From assembly GCA_964016885.1 (NCBI GenBank), contig OZ024740.1:121582001-121646000 (forward strand): a stretch of 64,000 nucleotides of DNA, written 5' to 3'. Below are positions 6,735 to 60,212 of this stretch, piece after piece (within the stretch, counting starts at the first letter, position 1; each line of letters opens with the position of its first letter). The position numbers were made by a program, and so were the translations under genes. The notes below the pieces were generated by a model that worked only from the letters and a program-made list of their open reading frames with translations, ran no database searches and was not told the DNA's origin. The stretch is from Eledone cirrhosa. Lineage: Eukaryota.

Positions 6735-9725
6735 ATGGCTGTATTGAGAGTGGCTTGTCTAAATGCACGTGGCCTGGCCTCATATTGGAAGCAAGCAAAA
6801 CTTCTAAATGACCTCAGGTCACGCTGTATAAATGTGATGGTTATTTGCGAGGCCCGGATCAGCAGCGTGCGCCAGCTAGACCCCACCTTTCACGACTTTG
6901 AGATGCACGCATCTCTCTGTCAGCTCGGAGGTGGGAGTGGGGTTGTCGTACTGCTGCAAAGACATCTGGGTCTCGCTACACAGACGGTACACCTGGACCC
7001 GGAGGGTCGACTGGGGGTTTTAGAGGTTGGCAGTGGTGAAGGCGGAGCCTTTATGCTGGTCGCCGCCTACGCCCATTTTGGGTCTGCGCGGCCGGACTTC
7101 TTCCAACGTCTGGAGACTTTTCTAGGGACGTCCCGCTCCTTGCTTTTAGTGGGGGACTAGAATGGTATCCTAGATGCACGTTAGGACTATGTAGGGGCAT
7201 GTCCTGATAGAGGGGTTGTAACAGCCTCAAGGGGTTAATCGGCCGATTCGACGTGGCCGATAGATATCGACTAGATTTTCCGACTGTGCCAATCTGGACT
7301 TGGACAAAACATAGCGGTCAATCTAGATCGTACCTAGATAGGTTCTTAGTTAGAAATAAGGATAGGGACTTTACAAGTTATCCAGAAATGCCTATGGTTG
7401 GCTATTCAGACCACAAGTTAGTGACCTCCATGGTCAACCTTGATAGAACGCATAGACAGGGACATGGTTACTGGAAGCTCAACTTGTCCTTACCGGCAAG
7501 TAAAGCTTACAGGGACCGGATTAGTACTTTAGTTAAGGAGCGGTTGACGGGCGCCATAGTCAACAGCAGGTGGTGGGGCTCTCTCAAAAGAGAGATTAGA
7601 GTAGCTTCAATAGGAGTTGGTAAGGAGTTAGCCTCAGATAGAAATAGGAAGGAAAGGGAGTTGGTAGATAGTGTAGAAGAGGCAATTAGAAGCGGCGACG
7701 TAGCCAGAGTGCTAGCGTTGAGAACGGCCTTGGGCCAGTTCTTCGAGGCGAAACACGAAGGCTGAGTTGTCCGAAGCAAAATACGTGCTCTGGGAAACGA
7801 GGGGACCAAAGCTGTTAGCTGGGCCCGTGTGAGAGAAGCCAAAAGTGCGATTACATCCACTATCCGGTCTTTGCGAGACCAGGATGGACGGGTGATCCTT
7901 GAACCAAAACAGATGTGCGAGGCCTTTCAAAGGCACTTTGCCCGATTGTTCGGAAGGGGCGAGGGGCCGGATGGGGATTTGGACCTCGGTCCATACCTCG
8001 ACGGCCTGACGCGTCTTTCCGACGAGGAGGCGAAGTCCTGCGAGAGGCCGATCTCAACTGCTGAAATAGGGGATGTGCTGAGCCCATGCGGCAGACGCAA
8101 ATCTCCGGGCCTCGATGGTCTTCCATACGAACTGTATTTAAGTATGCCGGACTTGTTCTTCGATCTCCTCGAGGCGGTCTACTGCAACTGGCAACAGAAC
8201 GGGAGAATTCCCTGTTCTGTGACCAAGGGCGTAGTCTGGCTAGTGAGGAAGGACGAGAACAAGGGGGATGAAATAAGTAATGTTAGGCCTATAATTCTGC
8301 TAAATGCAGAGCTAAAGATTTTGTCCAAGGTGTTAACAAAGAGGTTGGCGCTTGTCGTGGGCAACCTGGTGGGAGATGCACAGACATGCGCCATCCCGTC
8401 CAGGTCAATTCACGACAAGCTCCACCTCTTGCGATACATCATAGAGAGGGTTTGGGAACGAACCCGGCTTTGGTGAGGCCCTTGATCAACTTGGATCAAT
8501 CTAAGGCGTTCCATAGGGTCGACCATCGTTACCTGGATGCGGTGCTAGTGGCGGCAGGTTTCGGACCCGTTTTCAGGGGCTGGATCACTGCCATGCACAG
8601 CAGCCGCATCTGCTCTAGGGTTAGGTTGAACGGCTACCTTTCGGAGCCGTTCGAAATCACGCGGTCCATCCGACAGGGATGCCCTCTCTCCTCCCTTCTC
8701 TATGTATTGACCCTAGAGCCACTACTGCTGCAGTTGGAGTTGTTACAGGGCATCCCTTTGGAACCGGGATTGCGGAAAGCGGTGGCGGCCTCCGCCGATG
8801 ACGTGACAGTAATTGTGTCAACCGCCTCGGAAATCGGGGTGATCGGCACCTTACCAGGGGAATACGAAAAGTTTACGGGGCTAAGCTGAACCGGGACAGG
8901 TCAGTCAGTTTGTAACTCGGCGAGTGGAGGGGAAAACTGATGGCCTTCAACGGGTCGTCGGACGTTGGACGGAGGGCCCGGTGAAGTTGCTCGGGGTCTG
9001 GTTCGGGCCAGACATCCAGGTGGAGAAGAACTGGGCTGAGGTATCGAACAGGCGGACATTGCTATCGGTGGAGACTCCACCCCGTCATTCTATAGAGGGC
9101 CAGTGGTTAGTAGGTGCGACGACGCTCTCGGACAAGCCCTAGGCATGGAAGAAGACGAACTGGCCAGCCTATTCGGGAGGACATTTGGCACGGGACCTAT
9201 GGACAACTTCGAGAGGTCCCTGGCCTGGCAGTGCTACCTAGGGGGGCTGCCCGTTCGAGAAAATTCTACAGAAACAGGCGCCCGTGTAGGGACCCCTCGA
9301 AAAAGATCTGTACCAGATGCGTGCGCGACGAGGAAACCGTTGCGCACGCATTGGTACACTACTCGGGTGTTGCCGATCTGTGGGGCTATGTCGAACGACT
9401 GTTGTCATGGGTGGGACCAATCCGGTTGACCACCGAGTCCATTGTAACGATCAAGCTGCTTCCCCCCTTCAAAAATGAAGGAGAGTCGGTCTTCCTCTGT
9501 GTAATAGCCATGGTGAAAGTGGTGGTATGGTGGACACGTTTGAAAGGTCTGATGTCAGATACCCCTCTCTCCGGCCAACAACTGTTCCTTTTCTTTAAAT
9601 ACCATTTTAAGAGAAGGATCAATATGGAGAGAGAGGTGCTCCCACCCAGCAAGTTTTATGAAAGGTGGATGAAAGTAGCGAGAATGGCCCGTGTGAATGG
9701 GTCTTCTATCTTTATCAGCCTGTAG
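6735..9725 (+). pseudogene. Tx1 ORF2: AP endonuclease + reverse transcriptase + C-terminal Cys motif
   Basis: Motifs CLNARGL, VGD*N, YLDRFLV, SDHKLV, YWKLN, KSPGLDGLP, RPIILLN, LDQSKAFHRV, RQGCPLS, SADD and CTRC..ETVAHAL. Multiple stops and frameshifts; about 450 bp deleted near 9050. Confidence 0.9.
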
Positions 9726-9984
9726 GTGGAAAAGTGGAAGTTCAAAGCAGCACCCCCTCTCTGTGCTCCTAAGGAAAAGGGTTGCACACTTTTTCGGGGG
9801 CGTGTGTAACCCACAAAACGCCTCTTTCCTATTGAGGACTGTTAATTTTATATTTGTTATTTGTTTTTTTACTAGTTTCTTTATGTAAACCCCCCCTTGT
9901 ATTTGTCCCTTCTTTTGTGCCCTCGTGGCAAATAAATATAAACTTATCTATCTATATATCTATCCCTTTTCTCGCTTCATAAAG

Positions 9985-10400
9985 CGGGAGTATTTTAATG
10001 GTTTCTTCACATATAAGAACAGCTAGAATCTGAAGAGTTTAAGTCTGGGGTGTAAGGAGGCTATCGAATGAGCGCAAAATCCTTTATTGCCAAGAATCAC
10101 ATGGATAAGCTGTGATGAATGAACCAGGGCGTTCTCAAAATACTGCCCTCAGTTTTGCGAGGCTCATAGTTTCGGCCAAATACATCGAATGAGTAATGAA
10201 TATGTGGGATGACTTCCTGAGAGTAGTCCCTTGTTTTTACTTTGTGTGTGTATTCACGAGGCCCAACCTTTCGCTAGTCGAAGTAAACAGTCCGCAACAT
10301 ATGCTGTTCTTTGTCATGAGGACGATTGGTTCTTCCACTGTTATGACTGATCAGAGATTTCCGAGTTATTTGTAGGAGAAACATGCATCCGGGAAAAATA
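9985..10400 (-). mobile_element. Tc1/mariner transposase relic
   Basis: Reverse complement of about 10020-10062 reads PPYTPDLNSSD, similar to the PYSPDLxPxD motif. The rest is degraded. Confidence 0.4.
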
Positions 10401-10679
10401 AAATCGGATACCTTTCTGACACATCTCACATATATAATTTTCTGTGTGCAAGATTATTCGTGTTGTTATCTGCGAATATATATATACGTAATATCAGCTA
10501 ATCTTTTTATCTTGCTGAAATCCATAAATATATGTTGGATTTATATTTGCGTATTCTAACATAAATGTATACGCATTCAAATCGATATATACGTAAACGT
10601 GTAGCGCACAAACAAAAATACTTTCATATAAAAAACGCAAATACATGCTTAAAATACAGCAACGCTCCCTCAAACACTC

Positions 10680-10967
10680 TTTCTCTAACTCCCTCTCTCT
10701 ATCTATCCATCAGTCAATATCTCCGTTCTATTAATTTAGGTAATATTATATCAATCTGTCACTACATGTACCTCTCTATCAATTACCCCCCCCCCCCCTC
10801 TCTCTATCTATCTATCTATCTCTCTCTCTCTCTTTCTCCCTCTCTCTCTATTTCTCTCTCTCTCTCTATCTATCTATATATCTATCTATCTATATATCTA
10901 AAGAAAGATATCTATCTATATATATATTTATTTATCTATCTATATATTTATCTATCTATCTATATCT
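10680..10967. repeat. Compound (TC)n/(TATC)n microsatellite preceding Tx1 copy 2
   Basis: Directly visible tatctatc/tctc runs. Confidence 0.9.
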
Positions 10968-11173
10968 GGGATAGACACACGCGTGAAACTTGCTGGGTAA
11001 GTTCTGCCTAAATTTCTATAGAAATTCCTAACTGTAAACCTTCATTTTTATACCAATTTGTAGAGGGACTGCCAGGTCAAATTTTGATCTGGTCAGTCTC
11101 TCAAAATATTCTACACCTTTAGGCGAAATAGTACATGAAAAGTTTTTTCGGGAAAAGTTAACATTTTAAAAAA

Positions 11174-13018
11174 ATGGCTGAAGCTTCTTCAACATTCGAA
11201 GGAGGAAAGGGGAAGATATGCTTACAACTTCCCCTGCCACTGTCATAGTAGCAGATGTCAAAGACAAAGGTCAGCCAGAGGAAGGATTTTCTCCACCTGC
11301 TGACTGACAACTTGACGTTGCTATGGAAACAAACCAAAACAACACAACCAGCGGCAACAACAATAACAAAAATGCTATGAACGAACACACAACTTCACAA
11401 ATGAATTCCGCAACAATGACAACAACAACAACAGTAACAATGATGACAACAACACCAACAGCAGCAACAATAATGACAACAACACCAACAAGAACAACTC
11501 CACAAACAAGGAAAAAAGGTTTCGTTTGCACAAACTGTCCAAAAGTCAGAACTATATACACAGATTGACATCTCTAATGTCGGAGAATTGCTAGGGGATG
11601 CCAAGCAATATATAACTTTTGGGGAGGATGGCGCTTTTAGCATCACTTCTCCCCACTAATTGCGTAGAGACACTGTCCTGAAAACCATAGTTTTTAGGAC
11701 AATCTCAAATACCACCAGAAAACCAGCTCAATTAACTCAAAACGAAATTGATTGGTTCTAAGAAACTCCATGAATGACATTACCTCCATACAGAAGGGAA
11801 AACTCTTCGGGAGTTTATCAATAATAATGAAGACCAATTGACAGCACAGAAATATTCTGTGTCGCCAATTGTGTGTCCCCCCCCACTCTACACCGTTTTC
11901 CCCACATATATGGGAAAAAAGACCTAAAAAATTAAAGTAACAAATATCACACAAAATGTAAACATCTGGTGGATATTAGCTGGTTTCATCAATTTTCATG
12001 AAGATACAGTCATTTCGGTAGGAAAGTCCTCCAGGGGCATATTCAACGGTACAAGCTTAGAAGTTCTGGTCCAAATGAGACCAGGACGGATAGCTAGAAT
12101 ACCACAACGTGTGCCTCTGGATGGAAATTCCTACATAAACATTTCTGTTGAGGGTAGGCGGCCTTCATGTTACCACTGTTTAAGCAGTGGTCACCTGAGG
12201 GCTTCCTGTCTCAATTAACTGCATTAAAAAAAATGCACTATTGTCGACACCCAACACAACAACACAACCACCACCACCACAGCAACAACACACAAAAACA
12301 AACCAATCTGCAAACACAGTCCCACCCACCCCTCCCCACCTAAAACAACCCCAGAAACACTCACACACATAACAACTCCCAAAAATGTACCCCTCCCCAA
12401 CAACACGGATGAGGCCTCGTCATCGTCACCCAGTAACGATGAGGGAGAGCCTTTCTGACCAGTAAAAAGAAAAAAAGAAAAGACATAACACAAACAAAAA
12501 TGCAACAAACGCACAAACACCAATACAAGCGACGCAAACAGCACGAACAAAAACACCCCCTCCTGAAAACAAAACACCTACTAGAAAAACGTAAACACAC
12601 ACAAGAACCACTGAAAAAAAGCAACACAACACAACAAAAATGTTACATCTACATAAATACTAACAATAAAACTTTACCAGACACAATATATAAAAACCCT
12701 TCGGTGGAGACCGAAGGGAAAACTTTTACACACTCGTCGGAGAATCCTAATCTTAAAATGATAGGATCTCCATGGACACACATAAAGAGTTAAAAGGAAC
12801 ATTTCCTAACGACGTAGGTAACCTCTGCGTCAAACCCTATAACCGCGTCCTTTTAAATGTTTCCCCACCCCAACCCCATACACCCACACCCCACCTGGCA
12901 CACCACCCCACCAAACACCTCTGTACCCACACCGCCAGTGACAAACGCCCAACCAGACAACCCCTCCAACATCCCCATGGAAATTGTGCAGCCTGGTCCC
13001 CAAGAGACGAAGAGGTGA
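11174..13018 (+). pseudogene. Tx1 ORF1 with CCHC zinc knuckle
   Basis: aaaaATGGCT start. 12168-12210 encodes CYHCLSSGHLRASC. Homologous to the copy 3 ORF1 (VNIWWIL, EVLVQMRP). Contains stops. Confidence 0.8.
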
Positions 13019-13058
13019 GTGATTTCTTTTCCTCTTCTTTTAACTTTTCAGCACCAAC

Positions 13059-16000
13059 ATGGCCAATATAAGAGTTGGGTGTGTGAATGTACGCGGCCTG
13101 GGGATGCTCTGGAAACAGGGCAAACTCTTAAATGATCTCAGATCGAACAGTAGAGATGTAGTAGCCATTTGCCGGTCCAGGATCCACAGCGAGCGACAAC
13201 TGGCCCGCATCTTCGACGACTTTGAGATCTACGCATCTCTCTGTCAGCGGAGAGGTGGGGATGGGGTAGCCGTTTTGCTGCGGAAACACATGGATTTCGT
13301 AACACAGACGGTACATATGGACGCGGAGGGTCGACTGGTGGTCATAGACGTTGACGGTAGTGAAGGTGAAGCCTTCAGGCTGGTGATCGCATACGCCCCA
13401 TCTTTGAAACCGCGGCCAGACTTCTTCAAACTTCTAGAAACTTTTCTGGGAACGTCCCGCTCCCTGCTGTTAGTGGAGGACTGGAATGGAACCCTAGATG
13501 CACGTTGGGACTATGTGGGAGCATGTCCCGATAGAGGGGGGGGGGGGGTGTAACAACCTCAAGGGGTTAATCGGCCGATTTGACCTGGCCGATAGATATC
13601 GACTAGATTTTCCGACTGTGCCACTGTGGGTGTTGACTAATCGCAGCGGAACATCTAGATCGTACCTAGATAGGGTTCTAGTTAGAAAGAAGGATAGGGA
13701 CATGTTAAGCTGTCCACAAATGTTCATGGTTGCCTATTCAGATCACAAATTAGTGACCTGCTTAATCAACCTTGAGAAAACCCATAGACAGGTACCCGGC
13801 TACTGGAAGCTGAACTTGTCGTTACCGATATGCAAAGCCTACAGTAGACGGATTAGCACTTTAGTTAAGCAGCACTTTACGTGGGCCATTGTTAACAACA
13901 GATGGTGGTACTCTCTCAAGAGGGCAATTAGATTAAACTCGATAGGTTTTAGTAAATAATTAGTGTTAGATAGAAATAAGACCGAAAAGGAACTGGTAGA
14001 TAAAGTAGAAGAGGCACTTAGGAGTGGCAACGTAGCCAGCGTGCTAGCGACAAGAAAGACCTTGGAGCAGTTCTTCGACGCAAAGCATGAAGGATGCGTT
14101 GTCAGACGCAAAATACGTGCTCTGGGAAACGAGGGAGCCAAAGTTGTTAGCTGGGCCCGATGACGGAGGCGAAAAGTGGCAACAAGTCCACGATGCACCA
14201 AGACGGACGCGTGATACGTGACCCGAAGAAAATGTGCGTGGCCTTTCAGCGGCACTTTGCTCAATTGTTCGGACAGGGCGGCGCGCCGGGAGGGGCTATA
14301 GATTTCGGTCCATACCTCGACGGCTTATCGCGACTCTCGGACAGCGAGGCGAAGTTCTGTAAAAGGACGATTTCGGCCGCTGAGATAGGGGACGCGTTGA
14401 GCCAATGCGGCAAACGCAAATCTCCAGGTCTCGACGGTCTACCCTCCGAATGTTACGTAGCAATGCCGGACTTGTTCTCCGGTCTCCTGGAAGAGGTCTA
14501 CTGCAACTGGCAGCAGAACGGGAGAATTCCCATTTCTGTGACCAAGAATGCGTAATCACGTTAGTCAGGAAGGACGAGAATAAGGGGGATGACATAGGCA
14601 ACTTCCGGCCCATATCTCTGTTCAACAGAGTTACAGATGTTGGTCAGGGTGTTGGCAAAGAGGCTGGCGCTTGTCGTCGAAAACTGGTGAGAGAAGGGCA
14701 GACATGCGCAATCCCGACCAGGTCCATACACGACAACTTCCACCTCATGCGATATATCATAGAGAGTGTAGGGTGTAAACCCTGCTTCGGTGAGGCTCTG
14801 ATCAACTATATCAGTCTAAGACTTCGATAGGATTGATCATCATTACCTGGATGCGGTGCTCGAGGCGGCAGGCTTCAGACCCGTGTTCAGGAGCTGGATT
14901 GCTGCAATGCACAGCAGCAACATCTGCTCAAGGGTCAAGGTGAACGGCTACCTCTCGGAGCCGTTCCATATCACGCGATCCATCCGACAGGGATACCCTC
15001 TCTCCTCCCTTCTGTACGTACTGACTCTCGAGCCACTACAGCGGAAGTTGGAGCTATTGCAGGGCATCCCTTTGAAACCGGGACTGCGAAAAGCGGCGTC
15101 GGCCAACGCCGACGACGTGACAGTAATGGTATCGAGCACCTCGCAAATCGGGGAGGTCGGCACCTTACTGGAGGAATACGAATGATTCACAGCAGCGAAG
15201 CTGAACCGGGGCAAATCCGCTGGTTTGCAACTCGGAACGTGGAAAGGCAAACCGATGCCTTCCGATGGCGTCGTCGGACGCTGGACGGAAGGACCAGTAA
15301 AGCTGCTCCGGGTCTGGTTTGGTCCGGACCTCCAGGTGGAGAAGAACTGGAACGAGGTGACGCCCAAGGTGTTTGCGCTCACCCAGAAGTGGGCCGAGTG
15401 CAAATTATCCTTGAAAGGTGTAGCGGAGGTGGCGTACACTTTTATAGCGTCCGTCATCTCAATACCGCTTGACCGTCGTGCTTTGTCCAGCCAAAACGCT
15501 CACCAAAATGGAGCGCGCGCTCTTCCAATCCTTTGGAAGAAACGGGCTCCTTTGGTGAGAAGAATCATCTGCTACCAACACCCTTCAAACGGAGGGCTGG
15601 GTATGCCGTGGCTAACGATGCGCAAACACGCGCTCAGGCTGCGGCACCTCCACGTATTCCTCAACAGACAACCGATGTGGGCCTCGTTCGTGAAGAGAGC
15701 CTTCCAACGACTAGTCTCGCTGACCGAGCTGCAGTCCTGTGTCAAGCAAATACCGAGGAAACTGGGCGACTGGCACATCGAATGTACTCAGGCGCTCACA
15801 GTCCTCTGGCAAACGGACCCGGCGATCAGTGGAGACTCCACTTCGACATTCTATAGAGGGTTGGTCCGCAGCAAGTGCGACGACATGCTAGGAGAAACTC
15901 TAGGCGTAGAGGAGGACGAACTGGTCAGTCTGTTCGGTAGCACCTTCCGCCCGAGACCAATGGACAACTTCCAAATGTCTCTGGCTTGGCAGTGCTACCG

Positions 16001-16492
16001 AGGAGCTCTACCAGTTCGAGACAAGCTCTACAAACACGGGCGCCCGGGTAGCGACCCTTCGAAAAAGATCTGTCCGAGATGCGTGCGCGACGAGGAAACC
16101 GTCGCGCACACATTTGTACACTGCCTGGGCGTTACCGACCTGTGGGTCTATGTAGGACGGCTATTGTCGCGGGTGGGACCAATCCAGTTACCCACTGAGT
16201 GAATTGTCATTATCAAACCGCCATCCTCCTTCAAAAACGAGGGAGAGGCGGTTTTCCTATGTGTTATGGCTATGGTGAAAGAGGTTATATGGTGGACGAG
16301 GTTGAAAGGGCTGAGATCAGATACCTTTCTCTCCGGCGATCAACTGATTCGTTTTTTCAAATATCATTTTGGAAGAAGAATCAGGGTGGAGTGGAGAGAG
16401 AGGTGCTGTACCCCAGCAAATTTTATAAAAGGTGGGTTAATGTGGCAAATATGGCCCGAGTGGTTGTGCCTTCTCTCTATATAAGCCTGTAG
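13059..16492 (+). pseudogene. Tx1 ORF2 (APE-RT-zinc finger)
   Basis: Motifs CVNVRGL, EDWN, YLDRVLV, SDHKLV, KSPGLDGLP, RQGYPLS, NADD, NGGLGMP and CPRC..ETVAHTFVHC. Confidence 0.92.
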
Positions 16493-16987
16493 GTTGAGGA
16501 AAAAGAGGAAGAGAGGAAGGGAGTACTCACTCTTGGTGCTCCTGGAGATGAGGGTTGTACATTTTTTCGGGGTGTGTACAACCCCTGTTTAACGCCTCCC
16601 CCCTATTAGGGATATCAATTGTTATTTGTTATTTTATTAATATTTTTATTTTCATATACCTGTATGTAAACTCCCCATTTGTACTTTTCCCCTTCTTTTG
16701 TGCCCTTGTGACTAATAAAGAAATTTATCTATCTATCTATCTATCTATCTGATCACATTATCTAAATATCTCTGGAATGGACACATGTGTTAAACTAGCT
16801 CGGTAAGTTCTGTTTAAATTTCTTTAGAAATTCGTCATTGGGAACTTTTATTGTTATACCAATTTGTAGAGGGACTGACAGGTCAAATTTTGCTCTGGTT
16901 AGTCTCCCAATATATCGTGCCTCTCAGGGCAAAAACATCCAAAATATTTTCGAAAAATCTTTTGCAAAGAACTTCAAATTTAAAAAA

Positions 16988-18857
16988 ATGGCTGAAACAA
17001 AGCACCTACTTCTTTGTCAATACAAGAAGATGGGAAGGGGAAAGCCATGCCTACTTGACCAGCAGGTAGTTGCAGACATTGACAAAGGAATGCCAACATT
17101 ATCGCCTGAACATTTAGTAGAGGAACAAGCTTCAGCTGCTTGTAAGCAACTGAACACGCCTGACGTCACAAAGGTCACATGTATCCACACACAGAAGGAA
17201 CTATATGTATCAAACATTAATACCACCACGCCCAACAACAACACAATAAATGAGAACAACAACACAACAAAAGGAATCAGTGGCAACACAACGAATGAGA
17301 CCATCATCACCAACAACAACAACAATAACAACATTTCATTTGCAGCAAGAGTTGCTAAGCAACAGGATTTTAAATACTATTCCATGGACATTTCCCAAAA
17401 GTCCCAATATTTGGAAGAAGCTTCCAACTATGTGACGTTTGAGGGAGTCACACCACACATACACATACCCCCACAAGTAAGAGAAATGACACAGAAAAAG
17501 AAGCTAATTTATAGAACAGTTGACATCACTACCAAAAAACCCATAACGCTCCCAACAAGCACTATCGAAGCTGCACTAAAAGACATCAAGCCAGACGTGG
17601 CATACCTCCAAAGAGTTAAACAGTATGGAAGTGTGTCAGTGCTCTTTAAGAGCGAAACTTTGGCACAAAAACACTCTGTTCACCCAATAAAAACGGATCA
17701 ATACATCTTCCCCACATACATGGGAAGAAGATCCTACAAAATAAAAATAACCAGCATCCCAGCAGAGGTCAACATATGGTGGATCCTACGCTGCATCCTG
17801 AAGAAGCATGAGGACACCTTCCTATCTGTAGACAGGACAGACCGGCATAACTGGTTTGGAACCTGCATCGAGGTTCTGGTACAAATGAGGCCAGAGAGAG
17901 TTGATAAAATAGCAGTCAGGATCGTCCTTGAGGAAGATATCATCTCCATTTTAGTGGAGGGGAAAATACCTCAGTGCCATAAGTGTGGGAAAACCACACA
18001 CTTAAAGGCCTTTTGTCCTCTCTTAAACAAACCGAGGACAAAAAAGGTGTTATTACCAACACCAAAACCCCAACATCAACACTCCAAACCAAACACAACA
18101 CAAACACCTGCAACATCCACTCCCACAGACCAGAGAAAACCACACACACAAAATCCCACTGAAAAACCCTTCATTGCCTCTTCCCCTCCCTGTCAAATAC
18201 TTCCACAAACACCTGCACAAACACTCCACCACACAATATACCCTTCCCATCTACCCCTGATTCAGAAGTCTTAGATACGGGAACGTCTACATCTCCAAGT
18301 GAGAATGAAGAGGAACCCCAAAAATCCAAAAAACAAAAAAAACACACAAAAAACACACAAAAACATCTACAGAAAACACGCACACGCCCAACCCCACTAT
18401 AAACACACCGCCACAAACGACAAACACACCAACAACACAATCACCACCAACACAACCAAACACTTCACCAACAAAACAAACACCCACACCACCACAATCA
18501 CAAACCCCAACCACAAAAAGAAAACTACAAACAGAAACAGTACTAATAAAAAACAAAACACACTACACATACATAAAAAAAAAGAAACAAAGAACTGGTG
18601 GAAACTGTCCGAAAGGATCCCACAATACAAACAGAAGGGAAAACTTTCCCCACCAACGACCCACCCCCAAACCTCAAACTTATCAGGGTAGCAACTCTAC
18701 AGTATGAAACTTTAAAAGAGAACTTCCCACATGATGTGGGCCAATTTTCCAAAAGCCCCTTAACCGTGTCCTGCTAAAAGGATTCCCTCCCTCCCCAAAC
18801 ACCACCAATCTGGACATGGAGATCGAACAACCCGACCTTCAGGAAACAAAAAGTTAA
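16988..18857 (+). pseudogene. Tx1 ORF1 (gag-like, CCHC knuckle)
   Basis: Long ORF 16838-18274 contains SFAARVA and CHKCGKTTHLKAFC. The C-terminal part is frameshifted. Confidence 0.85.
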
Positions 18858-18897
18858 ATGTTCCTGCTTTGTCTCTCCTTAACTCTTCTTCACCAAC

Positions 18898-21800
18898 ATG
18901 GCGACTATATAAGCTGGATGTTTGAATGTACGTGGCCTGGGCATGTCCTGGAAACAGGGCCAGCTTTTAAATGATCTCAGGTCACATTGTATAGATGTGA
19001 TAGCCATCACCGAGTCCAGAATTCACGACAAGCAGCAGCTAACTCCCATGTTCGATCATTTTGACATCTACGCATCCCTCTGTCAGCAAGGTGGTGGAGG
19101 GGGACTTGCTGTTCTGTTTCGAAAAAACTTGGATCTCAAAATACAGACGATTCACTTGGACCCGGAGGGCAGCCTGGTGGTCCTGGATGTAAATGGTAGT
19201 GAAGGTGGATTTCAGACTGGTGGCCGTATATGCCCCGACTGGGACATCGCGACCAGAGATCTTCAAGCGTCTGGAGCCATTCCTGGGAACGTCTCGCTCC
19301 TTAGTGTTAGCGGAGGACTGGAATGGCATCTTAGACGCACCATTGGGACTATGTAGGAGTTGTGATAATGGAGGGTGGTGTAATAGCCTCAACATTCTCA
19401 TTAGCCAATTCCAACTGGCTGATAGATATCGACTAGTCTTCCCAAATGCACCACTGTGGTCGTGGAGAAACCGCACTGGGTCTTTTAGATCGTATTTTAA
19501 AAGATTTTTAATTAGACAGAATGATACAGAAACATTAAGCTGTCCACAAATGCAAATAGTTGCCCATTCAGACCACAAATTAGTCACCTGCCTAGTCAAC
19601 CTTGGTAGAACACACAGACAGGGACCCGGATACTGGAAGCTAAACTTGTAGCTCCCGGCGCGTAAAGGCCTACATTTTAAGGATTAGCCCCTTAGTTAAG
19701 TGCCTGTTGACGGGGGCGATCCTCAACAAGAGGTGGTGGAGCTTTCTCAAGAGAGCAATTAGAATATAATCAATAGCATTTAGCAAGGAAGTAGCTTTGG
19801 AAAAAAAAAACTGAAAAGGAACTGGTAGCTAAAATAGAAGAGGCACTTAGGAATGACTGTACAGCTGACGTGCTAGCGGCTAGAACGGCACTAGACCAGT
19901 TCTTCAACGTGAAACACGAAGGTTGTGTTGTCAGAAGTAGAAGACGTGCTCTAAGAAACGAGGGTGCTAAAGCTGTTACGTGGGCCCAAGTGGCAGAAGC
20001 GAAAGGTGGCAACAAATCCACAATTCGGTCTTTGCAAGACAAATATGGACGCATTATACTTGAATCCAAGCAGTTGTGCACGGCCTTCCAGCAGCATTTT
20101 GCACAACTGTTTGGGGAAAGAGGTAAATCGAGCGAGGTGATGGACTTCCGCTCCTACCTCGACGGCGTACCGCGACTCTCGAGCACGGATGCAGAGAACT
20201 GCGAAAGGCCGATCATAGCGGGTGAATAAGAAGATGCGGGAAACGCAAATCACCCGGTTTAGATGGTCTACTCTATGAGTTTTACATAGGCATGCCAGAG
20301 TTGTTCTCTGGCGTCCTCGAAGCGGTCTACTGCAACTGGCAGCAGAACGGGAGTATTCCCACTCCTGTAGGCAGTGGCGTAGTAACGCTGATCAGGAAAG
20401 ATGAGAACAAGGGGGATGAGATAAGCAATTTCAGGCCTTTAACTCTGCTCAACACAGAGTTAAAGATTTTGGCCAAGGTGTTAGCAGCAGCGCTGGCCCT
20501 TGTCGTCGAGAACCTGGTAGGGGAATTTCAAACGTGTGCAATCGCGACCAGGCCCATACACGACAACCTCCACCTCATGCGATACATCATAGAGAGGTTA
20601 GGGTGTAAACCTGGCTTTGGGGAATCTCTGATTAATTTAGATCAGTCTAAGGCATTTGATAGGGTCGACCATGAATAATTGGAAGCAGTTCTCAAGGCGG
20701 CCGGCTTCGGTCCCGTCTTCAGAGGCTGGTTCGCTGCCATGCACACCAGCATCTGCTCGGCAGTCAAGGTGAATGCCTACCTATCAGAACCATTCTAAAT
20801 CATGCGTTTCATCCGTCAAGGATGCTCTTTCTCCTCCATTCTGTATGTACTGACTCTCGAGCCCTTACTGCGGTAATTGGAGCTGCTGCAGGGCATCCAG
20901 ATTGAATCAGGACTGCGGAGAGCAGCGTCAGCCTATGCCGACGACATAACCGTAATGGTGTCGAAAACCTCGGAAATCAGGGTAATCGGCAACCTATTAC
21001 AAGAATACGAAACTTTTACAGGAGCAAGAATAAACCCAAACAAGTCTGTCGGTCTGCAACTCGGCACATGGAGAGGCAAACCCTTGCCTTCCGACAGTGA
21101 CGTTGGACGCTGGACGGAAGGACCGGTGAAATTGCTCGGAGTCTGGTTCGGTCCAGACCTCCAGGTGGAGCAGAACTGGAACGAGGTTACGGAGAAGGTG
21201 TTTGCACTTACCCAGAAGTGGGCTGATTGCAAACACTCCTTGAAAGGTCGAGCGGAGGTGGCGAACACTTACATAGCGTCCGTCATCTACTACCGCTTGA
21301 CAGTCATGCCTTGCCCCTGCGAATACCTTACCAAAATGGATCGCCTACTCTTCAAGTTCCTCTGGAAGAAACAGGCTCCATTGATGAGGAGATCCATCTG
21401 CTGTCAACACCCTTCTAACGGATGGCTGGGCATGCCGTGGCTGATGATGCGCAAACATGCACTGAGGCTACGCCATCTCTAGGTATTCCTGACCGGTGAA
21501 CCGGTGTGGCTGTCGTTTGTGATACAAGCTCTTCCACAATTAGTCTTACTAACAGAGCTGCAGTCCTGTGTCTAGCGAAGACAGAAAATGGGTGCCTGGC
21601 ACCTCGAGTCCCTACAGGCGCTCACAGCCCTCTACCAAGCGTAAACGGCAATCAGCAGAGACTCTACTTCGACATTCTATAGGGGATTAGTGGAGGATAA
21701 GCGCGACAACGTTCTCGGGGAAACTCTAGGCATCGAGGTGGGCGAACTGAACAGTCTGTTCGGGAGGACTCTCCGTCCAGGGCCTATGGATAACTTCCGG

Positions 21801-22316
21801 AGGTCTCTGGCCTGGCAGTGCTACCGAGGAACTCTACCAGTTCGAGATGAAATCTACAGGCACGGACGCCCTGGCAGTGATCCTGCCAAAAAGACCTGTC
21901 CAAGATGCGAGCAAGACATCGAAACCGTTCTGCACACAATTGTTCAGTGCCCAGGGGTGACCGACTTGTGGAATTATGTCGAAGAGCTGCTGTCACATTT
22001 GGGACGCATCCAGTTGTCAGCCGAGTCCATCGTGAGGATCACCACGCCGCCTTCATCTACAAACGAAGCAGAGGCTGTTTTCCTCTGTCTGGTGGCTATG
22101 GCGAAAGAGGTAATATGGTGGACGAGGTTAAAAGGACTGAAGGCAAACCCCTTTCTCTCCGGACAACAACTTATCCCCTTCTTTAAGTATTACTTCAGAA
22201 GGAAGGTGAGAGTGGAGAGACAGGTGCTACACCCCAGTAAATTCGCTGAAATGTGGGTGAATGTGGCCAGTATGGCCCGGATGAATATAAATAATACTCT
22301 GTATATAAACCTGTAG
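18898..22316 (+). pseudogene. Tx1 ORF2 (APE-RT-zinc finger)
   Basis: Motifs LNVRGL, SDHKLV, NFRPLTLLNTELKILAK, LDQSKAFDRV, YADD and CPRC..ETVLHTIVQC. Contains stops and frameshifts. Confidence 0.92.
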
Positions 22317-28250: not shown

Positions 28251-28648
28251 AGATTTCGCTTCAAGCATAGCTTTATGGAAATATGTATAGAAATTGCGTA
28301 TTTCTAAAGTAATACGGTTTTAGGAAGCCGTAGATATGCAAGCACCTGGTCTTAGGCCCTCTTGTGGTGTCCTGCAGAAGCACGGGGGACAACCGTCTAT
28401 TCATTTCAGGTTGACTGGCGTTCGTCAGGACGGTCCCTCCCACCGATTGCAACTGCAGGACTTGAAAACGGCCGAGAAAACTATATATTCTCGACTGTTT
28501 TCAAGTCCAGTATCTGCAAGCTGTGGACGGAACCGTCCTGACGAAGGCCAGTCAAGCCTGAAATGCATAGACAGTTGTCCCCCTGCTTCTGATGGACACC
28601 ACCAGAGGGCGTTAGCCCCGGTGTTTGCATAGCTACAGCTTCCTAAAA
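28147..28648. mobile_element. Nested foldbacks (28147-28218/28246-28318 and 28318-28480/28487-28648), hammerhead-bearing element
   Basis: Visible inverted repeats with an HHR in both arms of the second foldback. Confidence 0.75.
28531..28576 (+). ncRNA. Minimal type I hammerhead ribozyme (inverted copy 28392-28434)
   Basis: aaccgtc-CTGACGA-aggc cagtcaa gcct-GAAA-tgca-TA-gacagtt. The minus-strand copy has a perfect accgtc/gacggt stem I. Confidence 0.85.
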
Positions 28649-56427: not shown

Positions 56428-56435
<8 letters not shown>

Positions 56436-57022
56436 GAATTGGTGCACTGAAATAGCAATATATATCTATGAATGTATATACAGTGTATTTTGCAATACAC
56501 TGTATGCTTAGAGTAGTGACAGTCTCACTTACTTTAAATGTTCAGCAAACAGGGGAGATAAAGCTGACAGAGTTCTGTTTCGTACTTTTTGGTACTTATC
56601 AAAACTAACTACTCCACCTGTTTGCTGAAAATCATGAATGTTTGATTCCTATAGAATTCTAGTAATAATCAGTAACTGGTTATACAGAGCGGTTGCCGGT
56701 CAAGCAGAAATTGAAAATTAGAATTGGTGCTCTGACATAGCGATATATTTATGAATATATGTATAGTGTATTTTGCAATACACTGTATGCTTAATTAAAA
56801 GCATTTCGAAGACATTTCATGAATTTCAGCAAACAGGTGGAGTAGTTAGCTTTGATAAGTACCAACAAGTACGAAACAGAGCTCTGTCAGCTTTGTTTCC
56901 TCTGTTTGCTGAAAATTTAAAGTAAGTGAGACTGTTACTCTAAAACAAATAGCGTAAGGTCTTCGGAATGCTTTTAATTGAGCATACAGTGTATTGCAAA
57001 AGACACTGTATGTACATTCATA
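56428..57022. repeat. Rearranged direct + inverted repeat unit in (TA)n
   Basis: aaattagaattggtgc at 56429 and 56716. 56820-57020 is inverted relative to 56465-56638. Confidence 0.75.
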
Positions 57023-57440: not shown

Positions 57441-57535
<95 letters not shown>

Positions 57536-57539
57536 CGTA

Positions 57540-58340
57540 TATGGAAAAAATGAAATTTCATTTCTCACTCTTAGTACGGTTGATACTTAAATATAAGTAT
57601 TATACGCACATACATATATGTATACAGACATACAGTAGTATTTATATTCATACATACATACACACATATATATATATATGTACGTATAGATTTACCGAAT
57701 ATTTATTATAATGCTCGGTTTGTTTGTAAACAAACAGCCCGAAATTATTAGCCGTACAGTGTTCGGCAACCATCTTTGCCCCTTTGTTCAACACTGACAA
57801 AGGAACGATGAACTAGTTTCTAGCGTATTAACTGTCATCAGCACCGTATACCTTTCTGTCAGTCGATTGAACGTTTGAAAGTATTTACTTTCGTTATGCA
57901 TATTAACGGGTGAGCAGCCTAATTTGAATATCAAGGGAGTTAGTCGGCCGGGTGTACCGAAAACGATAAATGGAAAAAATGAAATTTCATTTCTCACTCT
58001 TAGGACGGCTGATACTTAAATATAAGTATTATACGTACATACACATTGTATACAGACTTACAGTAGTATGTATATACATACATACATGCACACATATATA
58101 TATATATGTACGTATCGGTTTACCGAACATTTATTATAATGCTCGGTTTGTTTGTAAACAAACAGCCCTAAATTACTAGCAGAACAGTGTTCGGCAACCA
58201 TCGTTTCCCTTTTGTTCAACACCGACAAAGGAACAATAAACTAGTATCTAGCGTATTGGCTGTCATCAGCACCGTATACCCTCCTGTCAGTCGATTGAAC
58301 GTTTGATAGTATTTACTTTCCGTATACATATTAACGACAG
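57540..58340 (-). mobile_element. Tandem ~428-bp hammerhead monomers (subfamily 1)
   Basis: Direct repeat starting at 57541 and 57970. HHRs at 57805-57847 and 58233-58275 (the latter with GAAA>GATA). Confidence 0.85.
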
Positions 58341-58651
58341 ACAGGAAGATATACGATGGTTGATATCAGTTGATGCTGGCCTTTTGAGTATGATTTATTT
58401 TTTTCGAAAAGTGGATGATTGAGGGTGTCTACCTGAAATGGAAAAAGCCGTTTTGTAAAATGTATTATACTTGTGCGCGTGCGTATTCATTTGTGTATTT
58501 GCGTTACACATCCGTACGAAGCTAAGTATAAATGTGTGTGTATATAAAAGTAAAAGAGTGGGTGTGCATATTTCGGTCTGTATTAGTTGTAAGAGAATAT
58601 CTTTCTGATCATAAGAGAGCAATAGGAATCTAGGGGTGATGGTACATATAA

Positions 58652-58696
<45 letters not shown>

Positions 58697-58704
58697 TCTC
58701 TCTC

Positions 58705-58799
<95 letters not shown>

Positions 58800-58801
<2 letters not shown>

Positions 58802-60160
58802 GGAAAAAATGAAACGACGAAATTTCATTTCCCACTCTTAGTACGGCTGTTACTTAAATATAAGTATGTACACGTACATACATATATGTATACCGACGTA
58901 CAGTAGTATGTATATATATATACATACATGCACACATATATATATGTACGTATGGATTCACCGAACATTTATTATAATGTTTGGTGTGTTTGTAAACAAA
59001 CATCCCGTATTAAGCCGTAGAGTCTAGCAACCATCGTTGCTCGTTTGTTCAACACTGACAAACTAGCTTGAAACTAGTACAGCGTTCCTTTGTCAGTGTT
59101 GAACAAACGAGCAACGATGGTTGCTAGATATTACGGCTTAATACGGGATGTTTGTTTACAAACACACCGAGCATTATAATAAATGTTCGGTGAATCCATA
59201 CGTACATATATATATATATATATGTGAGCATGTATGTATATATATATACTTAGAACTGTACGTCGGTATACATATATGTATGTACGTGTACATACTTATA
59301 TTTAAGTAACAGGCGTACTAAGAGTTGTAAAAGAAATTTCGTTTCATTTTTCCGTTTATCATTTTCGGTGCACCCGGCCGATTAACGCACTCGTTATGAA
59401 AATTGGGCTACTCAGCCGTTAATATGCGTAAGGAAAGCATATGCTTTCAGACGTTCAACAATCTGGCAGGAAGGTATACGTTGCTGACGATAGCTTATAA
59501 GCTAGAAACTAGTACAGCGTTCCTTTGTCAGTGTTGAACAAACGAGCAACGATGGTTGCTAGACACTACGGCTTAATACGGGATGTTTATTTACAAACAC
59601 ACTGAGCATTATAAAAAATGTTCGGTGACTCCATACGTACAGATATATATGTGTGCATGTATGTATATATATATATACATACTACTGTACGTCGGTATAT
59701 ATATATGTAAGTACGTGTACATACTTATATTTAAGTAACAGCCGTACTAAGAGTGGGAACTTAAATTTCGTTTCATTTTTTCCGTTTATCTTTTTCGGTG
59801 CACCCGGCCGATTAACCTCCTCGATATGCAAATTGTTGGGCTACTCAGCCGTTAATATGCATAAGGAAACCATATGCTTTCAGACGTTCAACAATCTGGC
59901 AGGAAGGTATACGTTGCTGATGATAGCTGATAAGCTTGAAACTAGTACAGCGTTCCTTTGTCAGTGTTGAATAAACGAACAACGATGGTTGCTAGACACT
60001 ACGGCTTAATACGGGATGTTTGTCTACAAACACACCGAGCATTATAATAAATGTTCGGTGAATCCATACGTACATATATATATGTGTGTGCATGTATGTA
60101 TATATATATATATACATACTACTGTACGTCGGTATACATATATGTATGTACGTGTACATA

Positions 60161-60165
<5 letters not shown>
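58800..60165 (+). mobile_element. Inverted leader (58800-59061) + ~2.5 tandem 433-435-bp hammerhead monomers (subfamily 2)
   Basis: Repeat period 59085/59520/59953, with (TA)n at both ends. Confidence 0.88.
59478..59520 (+). ncRNA. Minimal type I hammerhead ribozyme (next copy 59911-59953; 3' half at 59065-59085)
   Basis: acgttg-CTGACGA-tagctt at aagcta-GAAA-ctag-TA-cagcgt. All three stems pair and the core is intact. Confidence 0.92.

Positions 60166-60212
<47 letters not shown>

Follow-up and report, generated by a model that had tools for sequence, protein, structure and literature searches.

A hammerhead-bearing retrozyme family in the Eledone cirrhosa genome with Penelope-like insertion ends and shared A-to-G changes

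Retrozymes with circular RNAs have already been described in metazoans (PMC7229834). These non-LTR retrozymes are short AT-rich tandem repeats without an ORF that occur in thousands of copies and carry one type I hammerhead per unit – a description that also fits the repeat family reported here, whose units of 420-540 nt lie slightly above the 150-450 bp of that study. Axolotl motifs from the same work act as dimers, and the family likewise combines a short stem III with a palindrome. The RNAs are demonstrated there and mobilisation from circles by Penelope-like elements (PLEs) is proposed, whereas our family, known from DNA alone, retains genomic traces of both steps. Vertebrate retrozymes (10.64898/2026.07.22.740005) resemble the family in occurring as monomers, dimers and multimers and in co-occurring with PLEs. 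Their link to PLEs is sequence kinship with PLE terminal repeats (pLTRs), and later satellite-like amplification is stressed; in contrast, the link in our family is an integration signature, with no homologous pLTR found among 50 GIY-YIG loci. In the available text of both papers, the copying of retrozyme circles into the genome by PLEs is proposed rather than demonstrated (PMC7229834, 10.64898/2026.07.22.740005), and one of the two names editing as a possible cause of RNA heterogeneity.

Endonuclease-bearing PLEs share further features with the family: tandem and inverted 5'-truncated copies, a tail at one end, microsatellite or AT-rich targets, two internal start sites and a hammerhead in the terminal repeat (10.1101/2021.04.23.441226, PMC11167929). 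The family differs from them in having no ORF and in its tail of ~56 nt, compared with 30-40 bp in the PLEs described by these sources. Our literature search, which covered few subscription papers, found no report of end-pairing or of edited genomic arrays; related families may be listed in the supplements of PMC7229834 and 10.64898/2026.07.22.740005.

We analyzed a window of 64,000 nucleotides from E. cirrhosa (contig OZ024740.1 of assembly GCA_964016885.1), which contains three broken-up copies of an abundant non-coding repeat. An earlier note on this DNA had described a single tandem array with one intact hammerhead per unit. The repeat instead forms two separate insertions on opposite strands with five hammerhead positions, comprising two intact motifs, a weakened one, one whose core is broken and a truncated one:

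57466..57535, no strand: target site of block B, a (TA)n tract bordering its 3' end
57543..58336, minus: block B, an older subfamily with a partial, a full and a partial unit, running to the long ('tail') end at about unit position 274
57803..57849, minus: hammerhead B2, core intact, GUU site, stem II of just 3 bp (weakened)
58231..58277, minus: hammerhead B1, broken core (GAUA replacing GAAA) and mutated stem I
58337..58640, minus: piece of another high-copy repeat that abuts the 5' end of block B
58757..58798, no strand: (TA)n tract where the inverted arm ends
58796..59062, minus: inverted arm, unit positions 10-275, with the long ('tail') end and without a hammerhead
59065..60165, plus: main arm, with a truncated hammerhead, full units of 435 and 433 nt and a partial unit to the short end at about unit position 219
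59065..59086, plus: truncated hammerhead A0, 3' half only, palindrome and GUA site retained
59476..59522, plus: hammerhead A1, type I and intact, with cleavage predicted after 59514
59515..59947, plus: the sole unit between two intact hammerheads, 433 nt, the predicted monomer
59909..59955, plus: hammerhead A2, type I and intact, with cleavage predicted after 59947
60163..60209, no strand: target site of the main arm, a (TA)n tract bordering its 3' end

The second insertion consists of the inverted arm (58796-59062) and the plus-strand arm (59065-60165) set back to back. The inverted arm and the PLE-type insertion ends had both been overlooked by the note, while its hammerhead spacing of 428-435 nt was recovered (435, 433 and 428 nt), as was its statement that no meaningful ORF is present: the longest ATG frame in a circularised unit is 51 aa, and the only nearby frame of at least 150 aa (58395-58853) scores below all Pfam cut-offs. 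Block B is 81% identical to the plus-strand unit. Between the two insertions, 58337-58795 holds microsatellites and the other repeat fragment; the repeat at 58337-58640 is likely a PLE 3' region, fuller copies of which end in a microsatellite and have a hammerhead of their own.

A comparison of the two full units on the plus strand shows 30 differences over 427 positions, indicating that the window copy is old, and no A-to-G cluster is present in the plus-strand units of the window. The predicted fold of the unit at 59515-59947 is strong (z -5.5), partly owing to an internal AT-rich hairpin. The locus itself is one ageing, unremarkable copy of a known kind of element – a non-LTR retrozyme family. 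The family matters more, as it makes the proposed circle-to-genome step testable.

The motif in the window is composed of stem I, CUGANGA, stem II, GAAA, an ACUAGU palindrome and a NUH site. A1 and A2 possess every type I element (CUGANGA, GAAA, NUH, stems I and II), B2 has them in weakened form, and B1 and A0 lack the full set, with stem I of B1 containing three G-U pairs. The two consecutive intact motifs lie on the plus strand only, and the plus-strand arm shows the consecutive complete hammerheads by which vertebrate retrozymes are recognized (10.64898/2026.07.22.740005). Cleavage at each GUA, as the note had put it, agrees with the plus-strand sites and departs from the minus strand, where B2 has GUU. 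The U-G/G-U flip in stem I and the differing stem II sequences that it gave for two subfamilies are confirmed.

The exact 34-letter core pattern has 23,085 copies in the 3.0 Gb genome, compared with none for a reversed control, so the motif is not a product of chance. We drew 109 motifs with intact cores from 55 stretches, namely all those behind the first 100 core matches in order of position. One stem I position pairs in 107 of these 109 motifs through five pair types (U-G 53, G-U 39, A-U 11, C-G 3 and U-A 1); because the motifs were selected by intact core and represent subfamilies, not independent events, this covariation shows structure, not selection on every copy. ACUAGU is retained in 106 of the 109, a set biased towards intact cores. 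An Rfam scan returned no hammerhead at gathering score or at E-values up to 10; its E-value matches were hairpins or microsatellites only, all below gathering score. Isolated motifs folded no better than shuffled sequences (z -0.5 to -1.1). Given these two null results, the hammerhead call is founded on the core motif together with the covariation. The window hammerheads are thus real as motifs, with self-cleavage a prediction. The short stem III cannot form within a monomer, and dimeric action through the ACUAGU palindrome, as envisaged in the note, is plausible. A 2014 paper reportedly found that minimal PLE hammerheads act as dimers.

Genome-wide, the retrozyme assignment made in the note is upheld: the repeat lacks coding capacity, is built of 420-540 nt units in tandem that each carry a type I hammerhead, and is dispersed throughout the genome. 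Within the sample, the shortest units measure about 420 nt and the longest 538 nt. The insertions are high-copy and of retrotransposition type, with fixed 3' ends and variable 5' ends, and the upstream neighbour of each unit is another unit – up to 36 consecutively – and not an ORF. The family is a new member among non-LTR retrozymes and displays their testable features. Two long arrays, in stretches L162-L163 and L142-L143, comprise ~36 and 17 full units with higher-order structure and are still bounded by a PLE-type end.

We observed that the 3' ends of the insertions fall at two fixed sites ~56 nt apart, at about unit positions 219 (short) and 275 (long). Among 98 arm ends in the 55 stretches, 38 were short, 41 long and 19 other; 73 of the 79 ends at the two canonical sites run into (TA)4 or more. 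Two-arm junctions numbered 28; ten of them had a non-canonical end, and the other 18 could be scored at both ends, all pairing a long end with a short one. A second set of 41 stretches, partly picked by hand, gave 15 long-short, two long-long and no short-short pairings, with eight unscorable. The two-arm insertion of the window obeys the same rule. PLE inversions have a tail on one end only (10.1101/2021.04.23.441226), and a purified PLE, which nicks AT-rich DNA on both strands, has two internal reverse-transcription start sites by which the tail is defined (PMC11167929). Consistent with the match between the long/short pattern and the PLE tail with its two start sites, the family was likely mobilised by a PLE enzyme.

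Some retrozyme 5' ends are fused, inverted or in the same sense, to other PLE-type 3' regions (L109:2400-2790, L114:2640-2790, L005:900-1334 and window 58337-58640), possibly through template switching between different RNAs in one insertion. These hybrid junctions follow no single rule – L109 combines short and long, L114 long and long – and are thus excluded as evidence.

To characterize the template, we lengthened an exact search pattern by the ten bases 3' of the cut site and then by the next ten across it. Counts went from 7,542 to 5,882 (78%) to 5,078 (86%). As no extra copies are lost at the cut site, the template was continuous there, whether it was a circle or a multimer left uncut; by the same counts, we reject run-off on a linear monomer produced by cleavage as the main route. 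In stretch L161, seven full 422-nt units spread over both arms have one substitution among them all. One variant that they share occurs at 13 places, eight of them within L161 and five in single copies on other backgrounds, and a second is common, with 100 places; a genome-wide search for a parent array through these two variants found other copies of the rarer one only as single copies.

A different kind of array is also present. Stretches L141 (1290-5077) and L144 (2054-3737) contain strictly alternating A and B units that are 13-16 substitutions apart, and L098, L146 and the L142-L143 array contain mixed, mosaic units. An old dimer that was duplicated at the DNA level is the best reading of the alternating arrays, and both kinds of array show growth at the DNA level. 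A dimer circle behind the alternating arrays was considered and rejected; A and B are as divergent as units of unrelated loci, and they are private to each locus.

We next examined rare copies with A-to-G changes, using a strand-symmetric control in which A-to-G in the palindrome was compared with the mirror T-to-C and adjacent matches were merged into loci. Palindrome A-to-G gave 65 matches at 51 loci, compared with 30 matches at 27 loci for the mirror change (p 0.009). Other rare changes were skewed in the same direction at the A-to-G loci (75 A-to-G versus 37 T-to-C, p 0.0004; 50 of 51 stretches scored), with 39 versus 53 at the control loci (29 stretches) and a non-significant 41 versus 32 in the stretches not selected for change (61 of 73). 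Clusters passing the cut-off were found in four of the 50 A-to-G stretches, in none of the 29 control stretches and in none of the 61 unselected ones, and no mirror T-to-C cluster occurred among the scored stretches. Putatively edited copies are rare.

The sequence context of the changed sites was also skewed. At nine loci picked for high A-to-G, a 5' G preceded one of 55 sites, compared with 15 of 95 background adenosines; at the 20 unique shared sites, it preceded none, compared with 15 of 76 (p 0.035). Enrichment of 5' U at the unique sites was not significant (p 0.07), and paired regions of the predicted circle held no excess of changed sites (9/20 versus 45/76). A depleted upstream G is a known preference of ADAR (PMC5625713), and the clusters suggest ADAR-like A-to-I editing of RNA.

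A search for double changes returned 11 matches, which fall at five loci; each locus has its own change set, so that none of the five looks like the parent of another. At L191, nine A-to-G changes are common to five full units, one of which has a single further substitution, and the partial units at both ends carry those of the nine changes that lie within their range. At L284, L293 and L294, A-to-G sets are likewise common to successive copies while most other changes are private, so four of the five double-change loci have shared sets; L284 also shows a later DNA duplication. The exception is L220, where the sets differ between successive copies, indicating that not every template was a monomer circle. 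At L256, six full units share three A-to-G changes and one T-to-C. At L191, L293 and L294, the end copies and the inner copies have their A-to-G sets in common; since unequal crossover is unable to replace the outermost copies, the shared sets point to a single molecule that was read repeatedly. Shared sets could also have arisen by gene conversion, from a parent locus since lost or through an error of assembly, and the loci are few.

From the observed repeat anatomy, copy number, end pattern, read-through and shared A-to-G sets, we infer that an autonomous PLE likely supplied the reverse transcriptase and endonuclease that spread the retrozyme, and likely copied it at least sometimes from circular unit-length RNA. 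Tandem copies would give rise to read-through transcripts that are cut at the hammerheads, probably as dimers via the ACUAGU palindrome, and the cut units would be ligated into circles of about 420-435 nt. Some templates may undergo A-to-I editing by a putative editing enzyme before they are copied. The PLE protein would nick both strands of a (TA)n tract, and reverse transcription would begin within the RNA, for each strand at its own fixed site, the two lying ~56 nt apart. Copying would then cross the cleavage junction for a variable number of rounds and produce tandem arms, often two back to back. Uncut multimeric transcripts are probably used too, and some arrays grew later at the DNA level. 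We lean somewhat towards a more specific form of this proposal, in which the arrays with shared sets are fossils of single edited circles that a PLE copied for up to six or more rounds, priming on both strands at two internal sites. The circular intermediate suggested in the note gains genomic support at the level of the family, not at the window locus, and its interpretation overall is partly supported.

The alternative that fares best is that the repeat is a non-autonomous PLE passenger copied only from uncut linear multimers, with the hammerhead a leftover or minor processing signal and the uniform arrays a result of later DNA-level amplification or gene conversion. Uncut RNA explains read-through at the cut site equally well, the differing changes in successive units of L220 and the alternating and mosaic arrays fit it, and in vitro a PLE uses unprocessed RNA and has no need of hammerhead cleavage (PMC11167929). 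Among dimers of Xenopus retrozymes, eight of nine did not cleave (10.64898/2026.07.22.740005). We nevertheless regard this alternative as unlikely: the end copies of L191, L293 and L294 match the inner A-to-G sets and lie beyond the reach of crossover, the five double-change loci have five sets and no apparent parent, and stem I covaries across subfamilies.

Copying from circles by a PLE, our preferred reading, is addressed by two independent genomic signatures that bear on the circle-to-genome step. One is the long/short end rule, which connects the repeat with PLE integration; the other is the shared A-to-G sets, which serve as molecular barcodes of single RNA templates. If the more specific form, with fossils of single edited circles, is true, the family would be the first to prove at sequence level that rolling-circle reverse transcription of circles is how animal retrozymes move; PLEs would drive retrozyme movement without pLTR homology, and RNA editing would be written back into the germline through reverse transcription of circles. 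Both analyses are applicable to any retrozyme-bearing genome, and a reconstitution assay could draw on the exact start sites, editing hot spots and candidate enzymes that they identify.

At first look the genome contains 10,596 GIY-YIG endonuclease candidates, of which 150 were scored, and intact frames of 844-1096 aa with reverse transcriptase and GIY-YIG are present, among them PLE proteins of 938 aa in L061 and 1096 aa in L063. Several have a CX4CXXC linker, a feature tied to Neptune/Nematis elements (10.1101/2021.04.23.441226), and by this linker motif, not by a tree, these PLEs appear to be of Neptune/Nematis type. We searched 50 GIY-YIG loci with blastn and a profile of 58 units and found no PLE with a terminal repeat like the unit among these 50 of the 10,596 candidates. 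A copy of the repeat lies inside three of the 50 loci, each time as a separate insertion. A tblastn search of 40 of the 55 position-ordered stretches found none with a PLE ORF that has the repeat as its own terminal repeat; the constant attachment to a PLE ORF that the note held to speak for mere pLTR fragments was not observed within the sample examined. PLE hammerheads in this genome have other palindromes in the place of ACUAGU.

These searches bear on a second alternative, that the copies are merely 5'-truncated pLTRs of an autonomous PLE. The ends do behave exactly as PLE ends, vertebrate retrozymes are kin to pLTRs (10.64898/2026.07.22.740005), and the endonuclease candidates examined were only 50 of 10,596. 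Set against this, units are preceded by up to 36 other units in a row and not by an ORF, none of the 40 stretches has a PLE ORF that owns the repeat, and the copies in the three GIY-YIG loci are all separate insertions, so we consider pLTR origin very improbable. An ordinary satellite or MITE-like repeat that spread at the DNA level with a chance hammerhead-like motif would agree with the Rfam and shuffling results and with the DNA-level amplification that does occur, and is hardly credible given the full core motif with covariation, the fixed 3' ends with variable 5' truncation and the strand-specific A-to-G clusters, which need an RNA step.

Several other hammerhead-like motifs were observed in PLE contexts. 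PLE terminal repeats downstream of an ORF carry one in L061, L062, L066-L069, L076, L077 and L079; its core departs from CUGANGA and an ACCGGU palindrome is kept. The palindrome is AGUACU in the L064 type and AACGUU in the family of the 58337-58640 fragment. In the window, a minus-strand motif at 34090-34042 lies in an apparent PLE 3' region, and similar sequence follows GIY-YIG remnants in L111 and L120. A type I hammerhead with a 7-bp stem I is present at 28436-28390 on the minus strand, with an inverted partial partner at ~28520-28550; it sits in a short element ending in (TA)n and represents a second hammerhead repeat family.

Three further observations concern the window. A read-through transcript of 58796-59360 is predicted to fold into a long hairpin in which 257 of the 267 inverted-arm bases are paired, and such a hairpin could possibly be a substrate for editing or small-RNA pathways. 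At 56430-57020, a short repeat lies in inverted arrangement between (TA)n tracts, and kin sequence flanks retrozyme copies in L119 and L027. Several broken copies of LINE-type reverse transcriptases, with zf-RVT and weak RVT_1 matches, are found at ~8000-22300.
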